Shown here: piece by piece, positions 2,625 to 42,032 of the stretch
Numbering within the stretch: position 1 is the first letter of the stretch
Layout of the letters: every line of letters begins with the position of its first letter
Source of the DNA: an uncultured Pseudomonadales bacterium
Lineage (GTDB): Bacteria; Patescibacteriota; Microgenomatia; UBA1400; UBA12108
Length of the DNA: 64,000 nt
NCBI GenBank assembly: GCA_964502225.1
Contig: CAZCUC010000002.1
Location: 9,092-73,091 of the forward strand
Direction of reading: 5' to 3'
Program-made: the position numbers and the translations under genes
The notes under the pieces: generated by a model
Told to the model about the DNA's origin: nothing
The model's input: the letters and a program-made list of their open reading frames with translations, nothing else
The model's database searches: none

Positions 2625-3125
2625 CTAGTTGAGTAGCCAAATTGAGAGATTAAGGAAACTAGCGAAAGTAACCCAGACGATATAGGGGTAGAGGAGATAG
2701 GCTGACCAAGGTGAGAGTTTTTCCCCTTCCTGGATAGAGCGCGCGATAAAATACCACATAGCTAAAATTTCGATAAACGCTAGGCCGGTAAATTTGAGAC
2801 CAAAGAAAAGGATCGACCAGAGGGCATTGAGGATTAGCTGAGATGCATAGACGTGCCAAAATGATCTGGCTTTTTTGCCAAACTGGTATTTGCGCCAAAC
2901 CAAGTATGCTGAGATCCCCATGAGGGTGTAGAGGAGTGTCCAGACTGGACCAAAGACCCAGTTGGGAGGAGAGAAAAATGGCTTGTTGAGATAAAGATAC
3001 CAATTGGTGATAGCAGAGAAAGTAAACAGCGAGCCGATCCCACCAGCTAATTGGGCGACGGCAATGCTTAAGATGAGCATCCAGTAGTTATCTTTGGGGC
3101 GAGACCATGGCCAGGTAATGTTCAT
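2625..3125 (-). CDS. tspO: TspO/MBR family tryptophan-rich sensory protein
   Basis: FFSPPNWVFGPVWTLLYTLMGISAYLVW Trp-rich motif, five TM helices, about 165 aa from Met MNITW. Confidence 0.75.
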   Translation of the reverse strand: MNITWPWSRPKDNYWMLILSIAVAQLAGGIGSLFTFSAITNWYLYLNKPFFSPPNWVFGPVWTLLYTLMGISAYLVWRKYQFGKKARSFWHVYASQLILNALWSILFFGLKFTGLAFIEILAMWYFIARSIQEGEKLSPWSAYLLYPYIVWVTFASFLNLSIWLLN

Positions 3126-22649: not shown

Positions 22650-22661
22650 TATAGGTCAATG

Positions 22662-22732
22662 TTGCGGGACTAGGACTCGAACCTAGGAGACGACATTCAG
22701 AGTGTCGCATGATACCACTTCATCATCCCGCA
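22662..22732 (-). tRNA. tRNA-Gln (anticodon CUG)
   Basis: Manual fold of the minus-strand sequence: 7-bp acceptor TGCGGGA/TCCCGCA, D-arm ATGA-AGTGGTA-TCAT, anticodon stem CGACA/TGTCG with loop CTCTGAA (CTG at 34-36), T-arm CTAGG-TTCGAGT-CCTAG. CCA not encoded. Confidence 0.8.
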
Positions 22733-26121: not shown

Positions 26122-26757
26122 ATGACGATCAAACAACTTTATGCAAAGTATCAAATTATGCCACAACTTGAAACTCACATGTTGAGAGTCGCTGGAGTGG
26201 GTAAAATAATTGCGGAAAACTGGCAGGGTGAGTGTGACACAAAACTTACAACCGATCTCTGTTCGATCCACGATATGGGGAATATTGTAAAGTTTGATTT
26301 GCGTGATGGGATTGATATGTCAAAGTTTGGCAGAATCGAAAATTTGAAACATTGGCAAGAAGTTCAGCGAAGATACTGGGATAAATATGGCAAGGATGCT
26401 CACGATGCGACTATCGGGATTTTGCGCGAGGCCGGACTGCCTCATTTTGAGTCTTATATCGACGAAGAGGAAAGACTCTATTTTGCGGAGGCTCGGGAGG
26501 AACAATTGGCGAAGGCGCGAGTAGAATCGATTATTCTCATGTACGCAGATTGCAGAGTTATACCGAGTGGGGTAGTGAGTTACCGCGAGCGGGTCAATGA
26601 TTTAAAAGACCGGTATGGGACAAGAAGCGATACCTGGTACGATTGGACGTTTTGGTTTGAAAATTGGTTACATACCAAGGTCGGAGTTGATTTGCAAAGT
26701 ATTACGGAAGATAGTGTTACCCCCCTCTTTGACGAGCTGCTATCACGTACTATATAA
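26122..26757 (+). CDS. HD-domain phosphohydrolase-like protein
   Basis: H..R.....(x)nLCSIHDMG consistent with an H...HD metal site. Confidence 0.45.
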   Translation: MTIKQLYAKYQIMPQLETHMLRVAGVGKIIAENWQGECDTKLTTDLCSIHDMGNIVKFDLRDGIDMSKFGRIENLKHWQEVQRRYWDKYGKDAHDATIGILREAGLPHFESYIDEEERLYFAEAREEQLAKARVESIILMYADCRVIPSGVVSYRERVNDLKDRYGTRSDTWYDWTFWFENWLHTKVGVDLQSITEDSVTPLFDELLSRTI

Positions 26758-26779
26758 TGGTCTTAATTGATAAAGCGAT

Positions 26780-26946
26780 GAAGGGGTTTCCCGCCCTTTC
26801 GACCGCCTCCCTGGCGAGTCAAGCTGAGTACGATGAGTGCTACGTAATCTGCACGAGACGCAGTAAATTGAGTAAAACCGCAAGGTGGTACCGCCCAGAG
26901 AAGGCCCTTGCATGTTCCCATTTTTGGGTGCATGCAAGGGTTTTTT
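26780..26946 (+). ncRNA. T-box riboswitch leader with intrinsic terminator upstream of csaA-proS
   Basis: T-box sequence caaGGTGGTACCGCC at 26881..26896 matches the AGGGUGGNACCGCG consensus. Antiterminator GCAAGG-UGGUACC-GCC-cagagaa-GGC-CCUUGC overlaps the terminator CCCTTGCATG...CATGCAAGGG (26905..26940) plus T6. GCGAUGA K-turn-like element at the 5' end of the putative stem I. Confidence 0.6.
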
Positions 26947-26967
26947 GTATATATAAGGAGTAAACAT

Positions 26968-27303
26968 ATGATCGATTACAACGACTTTGCCAAAGTGGAT
27001 ATCCGCGTGGGGCGCATAGTGGGGGTCGAAGACTTCCCCGAAGCCAAGAAACCCGCCTACAAACTGACCATCGATTTTGGGAGCGAAATAGGACAGAAAC
27101 GATCGAGTGCGCAAGTGAAAAAGTATTACACTAAAGAGACTCTGATGGGCAAAATAGTTTTGGGAGTTGTCAATTTCCCACCCAAACAAATTGGACCGTT
27201 TATGTCGGAGTGTCTCACTCTTGGAGCCCCTGATGAAGACGGACAATGTGTGCTAATCTCACCAAACAATGAGAAGGCAGTCATCGGCGGAAAATTATTT
27301 TAA
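26968..27303 (+). CDS. csaA: tRNA-binding protein (CsaA/Trbp111-type OB-fold)
   Basis: DFAKVDIRVGRIVGVEDFPEAKKPAYKLTIDFG typical of the EMAP/Myf tRNA-binding domain. SD AAGGAG lies 8 nt upstream. Confidence 0.7.
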   Translation: MIDYNDFAKVDIRVGRIVGVEDFPEAKKPAYKLTIDFGSEIGQKRSSAQVKKYYTKETLMGKIVLGVVNFPPKQIGPFMSECLTLGAPDEDGQCVLISPNNEKAVIGGKLF

Positions 27304-27323
27304 CAACTAATCAAAGGAGATTT

Positions 27324-28574
27324 ATGAAATATTCGAAAATGTTTGTCAAAACTTTAAAGACTGCACCCAGTGCGGCCGATACGGCGAACCACCGTCTACT
27401 TGTGCAGGCCGGATTTGTGCGCCAGGTCATGGCTGGAGTTTATACCTACCTCCCCTTGGGACTGCGGGTGCTGAACAAAATATCTAAAATTGTGCGCGAG
27501 GAGATGGATAATATCGGTGCCCAAGAAGTACTCATGCCACTACTTCACCCCTCTAGTTTGTGGAAGCAGACAGGGGCATGGGACAAGGCCGACGTATTAT
27601 TTAAAGTAAAAAGTCGGACTGATAAAGAATATGCATTAGCTATAAGCAATGAGGAGACAGTGACACCGCTCGCCAAAGAGTGGATTCATAGTGCTAAAGA
27701 TCTACCTCTAGCCATCTACCATATTAACTGGAAGTTCCGCGACGAGCTACGGTCAAAATCCGGTATTATGCGCGGGCGCGAGTTCCTCATGAAGGATATG
27801 TATAGTTTCCATGCTACCCAAGCGGATTTTGATACTTTTTATGCCAAAGCTAAAGTGGCTTACATGAATGTGTACAAACGATTGGGACTGGTCGCTAAAG
27901 CAACCGAAGCGTCGGGTGGGGCATTTACTGAGAAAGTCAGTTACGAGTTTGAAGTACTTACCGATGCGGGTGAAGCACCTGTTTTGTACTGCGACCAGTG
28001 TGACTACTGCGTGAACGTCGATGATATCAAAACCTACAAACTGGGTGATGAGTGCCCTATTTGCCACAAAGACAAACTAAAGTCGGCGATGGCATCTGAA
28101 GTGGGGAATGTGTTTGACCTAGGTCTGAAGTACTCCAAAGCGTTTGATCTCACTTTCAATAATGAAAGTGGAGAGAAAACCTACCCAATCATGGGTTGCT
28201 ACGGGATCGGGATCTCGCGCACTATGGGAGTGATAGTCGAAAAGTTCAATGATGCGCGTGGGATACTGTGGCCTGCCTCGATTGCGCCTTTTACTGTCCA
28301 CCTAGCGAGTCTAAACACAAATGATGAAGCGGTCATTAAGCGAGCGGATGAAGTGTATGAGCTCCTCACCAAAGCCGGTGTCGAGGTGCTCTATGATGAG
28401 CGAACAGATGTGGGTGCAGGGCAAAAACTGGGTGAAGCCGATATGATCGGTTGCCCTATCCGCGCGGTAGTATCCTCCAAAACTCAAGACAAAGTTGAAG
28501 TTAAGATGAGGAATGAGAAAGAAGCAAAATTAATGAGCGTGGAGGAGCTAATAAAGTTATGCTTAGAAAAATAG
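27324..28574 (+). CDS. proS: Prolyl-tRNA synthetase, bacterial type lacking the INS editing domain
   Basis: N-terminus FVKTLKTAP...HRLLVQAGFVRQ...GVYTYLPLGLRVLNKI parallels bacterial ProS. Class II motifs present. Only 416 aa. Confidence 0.8.
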   Translation: MKYSKMFVKTLKTAPSAADTANHRLLVQAGFVRQVMAGVYTYLPLGLRVLNKISKIVREEMDNIGAQEVLMPLLHPSSLWKQTGAWDKADVLFKVKSRTDKEYALAISNEETVTPLAKEWIHSAKDLPLAIYHINWKFRDELRSKSGIMRGREFLMKDMYSFHATQADFDTFYAKAKVAYMNVYKRLGLVAKATEASGGAFTEKVSYEFEVLTDAGEAPVLYCDQCDYCVNVDDIKTYKLGDECPICHKDKLKSAMASEVGNVFDLGLKYSKAFDLTFNNESGEKTYPIMGCYGIGISRTMGVIVEKFNDARGILWPASIAPFTVHLASLNTNDEAVIKRADEVYELLTKAGVEVLYDERTDVGAGQKLGEADMIGCPIRAVVSSKTQDKVEVKMRNEKEAKLMSVEELIKLCLEK

Positions 28575-40724: not shown

Positions 40725-42032
40725 TTATTTTTTAGTAAGTGCCCGTAGTAAGTTGCGTGTGACAAAGATGCCCGTAAAGAGTGAGATACAGATCCCGAGG
40801 AACAAAGTGAGCGCAAAGCCACGTACCATCCCCGAGCTATTGAGGAATGTCCAGTCGAGGGGGTTGAAAAGAATAAAAGTAGTGATCAAGGTGGCAATAT
40901 TGGCATCCTTGATTGCGTCCCAGGCTTTACCAAAACCAAGCTCCATACTACGCCTCCATTCATTACCTTTCCGGAGCTCTTCTTTCATACGTTCAAATAT
41001 CAAGATATTACTATCGACTGCCATCCCAATCGAGAGAATGAACCCAGCAAGGCCAGGTAGAGTAACCGTGATTGGAACCAGTTTGTACACTGCTAGCGTC
41101 AAGAGAGCATAGATCACTAGCCCAATATCTGCGACCAGTCCGAGCCAGCCGTAATTGAGGATCATAAAGAGCGCAACCAAACCCAATCCTACTAGACCTG
41201 CTGAGATGCTTTTACTGACACTCTCTGCACCCAGTGTAGGGGCGATATTCTGCTGTTTAATAATCTCGATCGGGACAGGGAGCGCGCCGGCATTTAAAGC
41301 AATGACTTTGTTTTTGGCATCTTCTACCGTAAACTCGCCATTAATCACAGCATTGCCATCGAGAATGGCTTGCTGGACAATGGGAGCTGTGAGTTCTTGC
41401 CCGTCAAGCAAGATCCAGACTGGTTTGCCAATATTGCGAGAGGTAATCTCCCCAAACTTTTTACCCCCCTCTGGTGTGAATTGGAGGGAAATTTCTGGTT
41501 TGCCGTTTTCGGGGTTGAAAGTGACGGCGGATTTTTTGAGGTCTTTGCCGGTCAAGCCAGTCGGTTTGAGATCGGCGTAGGTAGGACTGTCTGTAGCTAC
41601 TGGCAAGTCGTAGAAATCTAGGGAGGCAGTTTGTCCGATAAGATCGAGTGCTTCGTCTGGATTGCTGACACCAGGGAGCGCTACTAAAATGCGATAAGTG
41701 TCGTTGGTGACCAAGGTTTTGATTGATGGTTCGGCGACACCGTAGAGATCGACGCGGCGAGCGATGACTTCTTTGGCTGAATCGAGCGCGTCTTGGCGAT
41801 CTAGTGGGTCGACACCACTCATATCAGCGGCCAAAGTGACTTCTGTCCCACCCTGGAGATCTAGTCCCTGTTTGATGTCTAGCGAGCGGACGAAGCTACC
41901 GATTTTGATGGTAGGACTGGAGAGGACAAAACTGCGCTCACCCAGGTTAAGCGTATAGTTTTTGGGGGCATCGATAATGAGAGCCATGGCCGAGAGGAGA
42001 ATAATAAAGAAGATATTGCGTCGCAGTTTCAT
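40725..42032 (-). CDS. secD: Protein translocase subunit SecD
   Basis: N-terminal TM, large periplasmic domain, C-terminal six-TM SecD_SecF domain. Confidence 0.88.
   Translation of the reverse strand: MKLRRNIFFIILLSAMALIIDAPKNYTLNLGERSFVLSSPTIKIGSFVRSLDIKQGLDLQGGTEVTLAADMSGVDPLDRQDALDSAKEVIARRVDLYGVAEPSIKTLVTNDTYRILVALPGVSNPDEALDLIGQTASLDFYDLPVATDSPTYADLKPTGLTGKDLKKSAVTFNPENGKPEISLQFTPEGGKKFGEITSRNIGKPVWILLDGQELTAPIVQQAILDGNAVINGEFTVEDAKNKVIALNAGALPVPIEIIKQQNIAPTLGAESVSKSISAGLVGLGLVALFMILNYGWLGLVADIGLVIYALLTLAVYKLVPITVTLPGLAGFILSIGMAVDSNILIFERMKEELRKGNEWRRSMELGFGKAWDAIKDANIATLITTFILFNPLDWTFLNSSGMVRGFALTLFLGICISLFTGIFVTRNLLRALTKK

Follow-up and report, generated by a model that had tools for sequence, protein, structure and literature searches.

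T-box riboswitches have been reported from Firmicutes, Actinobacteria, Chloroflexi, Deinococcus-Thermus and Geobacter (PMC3766115). The classical members, modelled by the Rfam family RF00230, have a long Stem I with the specifier in an internal loop and a distal double T-loop platform, made of the AG bulge and the distal loop, that stacks on the tRNA elbow. This is followed by a Stem II with an S-turn, a IIA/B pseudoknot with an F-box, a Stem III flanked by 5'-RRRxG ... AA-3', and an antiterminator with a G•U wobble at the base of its helix A2, the steric sensor of the aminoacyl group; the Bacillus proBA and proI leaders are classical proline T-boxes with the specifier CCU (PMC3858371, citing Brill et al. 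2011). The classical 'minimal' T-box, glyQS, is a naturally reduced transcription attenuator that dispenses with Stem II and IIA/B but retains Stem III and a long Stem I with its platform (PMC7583486). An ultrashort (US, class II) type precedes ileS in Actinobacteria, including Mycobacterium and Nocardia (10.1101/2023.02.28.530422, PMC7583486, PMC11297988), and has been described as translational and from ileS genes only (10.1101/2023.02.28.530422). Translational T-boxes have been reported mostly from Actinobacteria (PMC7583486), and the TBDB search for truncated Stem I elements was confined to that phylum (PMC7778990). Here we analyzed the leader RNA of a csaA-proS operon in a 64,000-nt stretch of contig CAZCUC010000002.1 (positions 9,092 to 73,091) from a Woesebacteria-like bacterium of the Microgenomatia, in the candidate phyla radiation (CPR). 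This full stretch is termed the window, and all coordinates count from its position 1.

The leader, extending over approximately 26772-26946, is very probably a proline-specific T-box riboswitch of reduced architecture that would control csaA-proS by transcription attenuation. An earlier note on this DNA had proposed a T-box attenuator sensing tRNA-Pro at 26780-26946; that segment is contained in the leader, whereas the RNA is predicted to start slightly earlier, and the proposal itself is supported by homologous leaders, by covariation and by a family model. The significance of the leader follows from the z-score of its fold relative to shuffled sequence (z = -5.0), from the family covariance model, and from conservation and covariation in 22 leaders.

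The closest known class is that of the US ileS T-boxes. In both groups a short Stem I, devoid of an elbow-binding platform, presents the specifier in its terminal loop some 17-19 nt into the element; the third codon base is C and a purine comes next, and Stem II, a further hairpin, the RAG motif and a UGGN bulge between helices A1 and A2 are present. Whereas the US ileS elements are reported to be actinobacterial, translational and exclusive to ileS and tRNA-Ile, the CPR family is predicted to be proline-specific and mostly transcriptional, and the terminator and U6 of the window leader leave the Shine-Dalgarno sequence free, with no sequestrator. Stem II of the CPR leaders is an ordinary covarying helix rather than an S-turn, the window type has no identifiable IIA/B pseudoknot, Stem III or G•U pair at the base of A2, and the sensing domain measures ~117 nt, compared to ~166 nt in the M. 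tuberculosis ileS construct (PMC11297988). With the classical T-boxes the CPR leaders share the regulatory logic, proline biosynthesis targets, the bulge UGGUACC, a strand common to terminator and antiterminator, and a specifier that is a proline codon with a purine 3' of it, as well as, in relatives of the window leader, a base of Stem I with the pattern of a K-turn (kink-turn), but the window leader has none of the classical Stem I, Stem II, IIA/B, Stem III and A2 features listed above. The family is likewise naturally reduced, as is glyQS, yet in the opposite way: it keeps a short Stem II and has neither the Stem I platform nor Stem III.

Homologous leaders and covariation

A set of 80 csaA loci from genomes was screened for a T-box-like core, which was found 5' of csaA or its operon in six of them (L001, L003, L006, L007, L011 and L017) and before other genes at L004, L013, L031 and L054. 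A further set, L201-L205, L209, L215, L219, L221-L223 and L225, came from the contigs of CsaA homologues. A metagenome search with the pattern TCCCGCC-N58-88-RGGTGGTACCG gave, among the matches listed, mostly chance matches in GC-rich contigs or ordinary T-boxes of other phyla, together with one useful leader, L100. In all, 22 distinct leaders were assembled from CPR contigs of Microgenomates-like type, and 13 of these have the short form found in the window. A family covariance model made from ten short-form leaders (R1) recovered all members and matched the window leader with 108.5 bits (E ~1e-27). A second R1 match in the window (40815-40915, 11.9 bits, E = 0.77) was rejected as chance, being coding-like sequence with no terminator.

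The consensus fold starts with a 3-bp K-turn C-stem, a 3-nt bulge and the pairs G•A, A•G and A•G (G9•A29, A10•G28 and A11•G27 in the relatives), and continues with a Stem I of 4-5 bp bearing an apical loop of 6-9 nt and a 6-bp Stem II, which has one bulged A and is capped by a GAUGA-like loop. Next come a hairpin of 4-5 bp with an ACGAGAC loop and a 15-16-nt A-rich linker containing the RAG triplet, and then the 6-bp A1, the bulge UGGUA[C/A/U]C and A2, which overlap either a terminator or a hairpin sequestering the Shine-Dalgarno sequence. The 7-nt bulge between A1 and A2 is conserved in 22/22 leaders, and the sensing domain, 116-118 nt in the consensus, measures 140 nt in the window leader.

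In the alignment fitted to the model, 95.0% of cells are in standard pairs, as compared to 73.8% in shuffled alignments and 36-45% with the partners slid; 24/27 pairs are changed on both sides, and none of 500 shuffles reached any of the observed measures. A plain MAFFT alignment evaluated with the same structure gave 92.5% paired versus 84.4% in shuffles and 12 pairs changed on both sides versus 5.3, while further standard pair types were not above the shuffles (401/500 reached the observed value). RNAalifold, run unguided, predicted the same six helices, including the Stem I hairpin and the antiterminator. Changes on both sides affect 4/4 pairs of Stem I, 6/6 of Stem II (GUAC/GUGC, GUGU/ACAC, GUGC/GCAC, UCCCG/CGGGA), 5/6 of A1 and 3/3 of A2; the hairpin with the ACGAGAC loop varies between CUGC/GCAG, CCAGC/GCUGG and CCUAC/GUAGG, and pair 3:32 of the C-stem covaries from A:U to G:C.

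The same comparison bears on the parts that set the family apart from other T-boxes. The sequence GAGUAC of Stem II was considered as an S-turn (AGUA/GAA), which was ruled out since these positions covary as Watson-Crick pairs. The basal pair of A2 is G:C in 18/22 distinct leaders, A:U in 4/22 and G•U in none. Stem III is present in the long forms L004, L006, L011, L031 and L054, and no conserved helix was found in the 15-16-nt linker of any short-form member: as candidates for a cryptic Stem III between RAG and A1, A-U mini-helices in L202 and L221 and a GC-GAAA-GC element in L204/L205 were inspected, and none is conserved. No F-box and no pseudoknot partner were found for the CUGC-ACGAGAC-GCAG hairpin of the window type, and ACGG...CCGU[G/A]A is retained in L006, L011, L054, L100 and L225.

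Layout of the window leader and competing readings

The features of the leader region are collected in Table 1. The 210-nt gap before csaA and the T-box core within it, both described in the earlier note, were confirmed from the sequence, and the overlap of antiterminator and terminator is exactly as it had been drawn, with A1, bulge, A2, the 10-bp stem and T6 all in place. The isolated antiterminator domain has the antiterminator as its minimum-free-energy fold before the 3' arm of the terminator is made; the terminator core, the 5' arm of which doubles as the 3' strand of A2 and A1 (26905-26911), reaches -25.6 kcal/mol, and the complete platform -37.3 kcal/mol. The two downstream genes were likewise identified as csaA and proS, as the note had it, by family matches above cutoff; the ProRS (prolyl-tRNA synthetase) is of the bacterial type without insertion domain, and the closest CsaA loci are 90% identical to that of the window. 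The gene upstream had been called an HD-domain gene: an open reading frame (ORF) is present, but its Pfam HD match is weak (E = 0.004) and below cutoff.

Table 1. Positions of the predicted elements and genes around the csaA-proS leader
Feature	Position	Strand	Remarks
Promoter-like site TTGACG-18 nt-TATAAT	26729-26758	+	11/12 consensus positions; -10 box shares bases with the upstream stop codon
Stop codon of upstream ORF	26755-26757		5' limit of the 210-nt gap
C-stem AGC, K-turn 5' strand and Stem I base	26774-26776	+	then GAU bulge and GA, 26777-26781
Motif GCGATGA	26775-26781
Ultrashort Stem I GGGG/CCCU	26783-26797	+	closes 7-nt specifier loop UUUCCCG, 26787-26793
Specifier CCC	26790-26792		3' purine G at 26793
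Extra hairpin GACCGCC-UCCCU-GGCGAGUC	26801-26820	+	inserted between Stem I and the C-stem 3' strand
C-stem 3' strand GCU, closing Stem I	26823-26825	+	covariation, RNAalifold
Short Stem II GAGUAC/GUGCU(A)C	26826-26843	+	GAUGA pentaloop 26832-26836, bulged A
Hairpin CUGC-ACGAGAC-GCAG in place of Stem IIA/B	26849-26863	+	covarying stem; heptaloop 26853-26859
A-rich single-stranded linker	26864-26879	+	RAG triplet = GAG, 26870-26872
Antiterminator	26880-26911	+	A1, T-box bulge, A2; -10.4 kcal/mol
A1 GCAAGG/CCTTGC	26880-26885, 26906-26911		first strand, second strand
T-box core GGTGGTACCGCC	26884-26895
T-box bulge TGGTACC	26886-26892		7 nt
A2 GCC/GGC	26893-26895, 26903-26905		first strand, second strand
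Intrinsic terminator	26905-26946	+	10-bp stem and inner CCCA/UGGG stem, then U6
Terminator stem CCCTTGCATG/CATGCAAGGG	26905-26914, 26931-26940		5' arm, 3' arm; T6 at 26941-26946
Shine-Dalgarno AAGGAG	26955-26960	+	unpaired, downstream of the terminator
csaA, first regulated gene	26968-27303	+	ATG at 26968; TIGR02222 / NF007495, above cutoff
proS, second regulated gene, 416 aa	27324-28574	+	TIGR00409, 445 bits vs cutoff 307

A promoter of the kind listed in the table, TTGACG-N17/18-TATAAT, also stands 5' of the leader in L001, L201-L205, L209 and L215 (TAGAAT in L203). The heptaloop ACGAGAC is near-invariant in leaders of the window type (variants ACGAAAC and ACGAGAA); a search by eye of the linker, the 5' leader and the Stem II loop gave no conserved complement for it, and no known motif was identified in the loop. 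The RAG triplet, GAG or AAG, occurs at the equivalent position in every short-form member and corresponds to the RAG / RRRxG purine motif of T-boxes (PMC11297988, PMC7583486).

Several observations weigh against the assignment of the window leader to the T-boxes. RF00230, run with Infernal as the earlier note had proposed, found no match in the window, either at its gathering threshold or, over 301 nt, at E<=10, and no family member reached the gathering score of 93 bits. No tRNA-Pro gene was found in the 64-kb window. Finally, the 3' strand of the Stem I base is ...AA-GCU and follows a 22-nt insertion, so that the tandem G•A pairs of the relatives cannot form, which might impair function.

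The RF00230 result can be judged against the comparative data from homologous leaders, by which it is a false negative and not a refutation. RF00230 gave matches below threshold, yet significant, to L100 (47.0 bits, E = 1.3e-7), L011 (34.9 bits), L006 (34.8 bits) and L054 (23.8 bits). Its alignments of relatives cover the K-turn base, Stem II, Stem IIA (ACGG...CCGU) and the 3' T-box/antiterminator, and delete ~76 model positions, which is nearly all of Stem I; in L100 and L006 the hairpin equivalent to the short Stem II is matched to the Stem II of the model. A stable Stem I of the classical kind is indeed missing, the specifier being carried instead by the loop that caps an ultrashort Stem I. 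The earlier note would have taken the absence of an Infernal match, or of a stable Stem I and specifier loop, as grounds for rejection; applied here, both would wrongly reject the element.

The 11-nt core on its own falls short of significance: at <=1 mismatch the window holds 4 matches versus 1.7 expected, and 12/100 shuffles do as well. This is one of two points in favor of reading the hairpin as a plain terminator of the upstream ORF with a coincidental T-box-like sequence, the other being its distance of ~150 nt 3' of the upstream stop codon. However, the whole leader is conserved and covarying, behind varied upstream genes and before varied proline operons, and a conserved promoter separates it from the upstream ORF. 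The family model matches and the covariation effectively refute this explanation, to which we give a negligible chance.

The K-turn is the part of the window leader that departs most clearly from the consensus. The earlier note had recognized a K-turn-like element in GCGAUGA, and this motif does sit where RF00230 puts its Stem I K-turn base in relatives (GCGUUGA...GAGC in L100 and L006). A K-turn as such is uncertain in the window leader because a lineage-specific 22-nt hairpin (loop UCCCU, -11.1 kcal/mol) interrupts its 3' half, replacing the strand that would form the G•A pairs; this hairpin is not present in any of the 12 other distinct short-form leaders. The insertion could accordingly be taken as the mark of a decaying relic, in which tRNA sensing was abolished, leaving a leader that works only as a leaky, constitutive terminator. 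In agreement with such decay, R1 scores the window leader with fewer bits than its closest relatives (108.5 versus 124-140), and the whole leader was lost in the close relatives L002 and L207/L208. On the other hand, the specifier loop, Stem II, the ACGAGAC hairpin, RAG, the bulge, A1/A2 and the terminator are all intact and match the consensus; the insertion is clean and stable, and thus reads as a three-way junction rather than as damage; another extra hairpin, of different sequence, is accommodated at this position in L011; and a constitutive terminator of -37 kcal/mol before a ProRS gene would be strongly deleterious. We regard a relic as unlikely, and the insertion as one that has probably converted the K-turn of a T-box into a three-way junction.

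Specifier and regulated genes

In 22/22 distinct leaders, the apical loop of Stem I contains CCC, CCU or CCG with a purine next to it. Most members, the window included, have the loop UUUCCCG; the others have UAUCCCG, AUCCCA, UCCCCCG, UUUCCUG, CUCCUAA, CUCCGAA or UGAUCCGAC. The CCN specifier expected by the earlier note was found in this loop as CCC, which also fits the 'C rule' for the third codon position (PMC7583486). The genes under the leaders are always proline genes: csaA-proS with a ProRS of the bacterial or archaeal type, ornithine cyclodeaminase (ocd)-csaA-proS, proB, or proB-proA-proC-csaA-proS. At the other contact, the variable position of the bulge is U in every member. The suggestion that this U fits a discriminator A73 agrees with the A73 seen in a CPR tRNA-Pro(GGG) from L009, which belongs to a different CPR lineage. 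The only tRNA gene in the window is that of tRNA-Gln(CUG), at 22661-22732 on the - strand.

These loops and operons also bear on two other modes of control. ThrRS of E. coli binds an operator in thrS and thereby autoregulates its own gene, and a protein operator of this kind, with ProRS or CsaA binding a tRNA-like feature of its own mRNA, may be considered for an operon that encodes two tRNA-binding proteins and whose leader forms a short stem with a 7-nt loop, superficially similar to an anticodon arm. The loop, however, carries the proline codon CCN and not the anticodon NGG, and so complements tRNA-Pro instead of mimicking it; the same leader precedes proB, proBAC and ocd operons in which the first gene is neither csaA nor proS; and an operator gives no role to the conserved UGGU bulge or to the strand shared by A1/A2 and the terminator. 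We consider autoregulation by a bound protein very improbable. Attenuation through a translated proline-rich leader peptide would be offered by an ORF of 68 aa (26757-26963) that spans the leader, but this ORF contains just 2 prolines and lacks any run of them, and it is not preserved in relatives with insertions or deletions in the leader. Such a peptide is effectively excluded by the sequence and is hardly credible as the basis of control.

A T-box of a different kind was found at L017 (1633-2028, - strand), where RF00230 matched a classical element with a long Stem I (67.3 bits) and the specifier UAC. It is directly followed by a gene for tRNA-Tyr(GUA), a 275-aa ORF without family match, and tyrS. 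This T-box thus appears to control the gene of its own tRNA ligand, and since its UAC specifier precedes both tRNA-Tyr and tyrS, it shows that T-box codon logic operates in these CPR genomes.

The gene order downstream of the leader is itself restricted. csaA lies immediately 5' of proS in 11/80 csaA loci, essentially from Microgenomates-like CPR and with both ProRS types (loci cited: window 26968-28574; L001-L008, L011, L013, L017 and L038). CsaA is a Trbp111-like tRNA-binding protein, and its adjacency to proS in these loci suggests that it may work with ProRS as a tRNA-binding cofactor in trans.

Expression platforms, predicted mechanism and phylogenetic range

A strong hairpin equivalent to the window terminator, followed by U6-7, is present in each of the 13 distinct short-form members, which therefore are predicted to act on transcription. 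In L003 (2940-3005) and L007 (2937-3005), both from Shapirobacteria/Microgenomates, the hairpin competing with the antiterminator instead pairs the Shine-Dalgarno sequence GGAGG; the U-run lies within its 3' arm, and there is no U-tract after the stem. These two leaders seem to be under translational control, so that one family would use both platforms.

The architecture, the alternative folds, the covariation, the match of codon to genes and the partial recognition of relatives by RF00230 are seen in the sequences themselves, whereas binding of tRNA by the leader and its discrimination between charged and uncharged tRNA are inferred by analogy with T-boxes of known mechanism (PMC7583486). Transcription would start ~7 nt 3' of the TATAAT box, and the nascent RNA would fold an ultrashort Stem I displaying CCC and a purine in its apical loop, then the short Stem II and the further conserved hairpin. 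The anticodon of tRNA-Pro, most likely GGG, would pair with CCC. An uncharged tRNA would, in addition, pair through its 3'-ACCA end with UGGU in the 7-nt bulge and stabilize the weak antiterminator, blocking the much stronger terminator and allowing read-through into csaA-proS. With a charged tRNA, the antiterminator would not be stabilized, the terminator would form, and transcription would stop at U6, at 26946.

It is possible, although we hold it only tentatively, that the CPR proline leaders form a distinct, naturally minimized T-box class of ~117 nt that relies on other conserved elements in place of the missing ones. The substitutes in such a class would be the purine-rich Stem II loop (GAUGA in most short forms), the hairpin with the ACGAGAC loop, and the A-rich linker with RAG. 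If this holds, Stem III is dispensable and a long Stem I is not needed for transcriptional T-boxes. Trbp111-type relatives of CsaA bind the tRNA elbow, and a contribution of the co-transcribed CsaA to sensing in trans is a speculative extension of the mechanism.

Considered by its parts, the window leader is a real T-box and an unusually stripped-down variant of a known mechanism. The family joins an ultrashort Stem I to transcription termination, without Stem III or a G•U sensor pair, and offers a natural minimal scaffold for asking which T-box parts are needed, as well as a compact module for engineering. As the CPR is not among the phyla from which T-boxes have been reported, the family widens their phylogenetic range and extends tRNA-sensing riboswitches to ultrasmall bacteria with reduced genomes, where little regulation has been characterized. 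A full-text literature search, with incomplete coverage that leaves room for an earlier description, gave no T-box paper for CPR, Patescibacteria or Microgenomates. Annotation based on Rfam misses the CPR proline leaders entirely.

The distribution of the leader among loci of the same gene order is uneven. L002 (~2960-3003) and L207/L208 (~1960-2003) have no leader, and in L002 a TTGACG-N17-TATAAT promoter ends a few bases 5' of the csaA ATG. The T-box seems to be gained or lost as one unit, and the csaA mRNAs of these loci may be nearly leaderless. Among the long forms, L006 (~1790-1815) and, on the - strand, L054 and L031 have a G+C-rich hairpin with U6-7 in the Stem III region, for example CCACCGCAAGGUGGUUUUUUU. 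Located 5' of the T-box, this hairpin has the appearance of a further intrinsic terminator within the leader.

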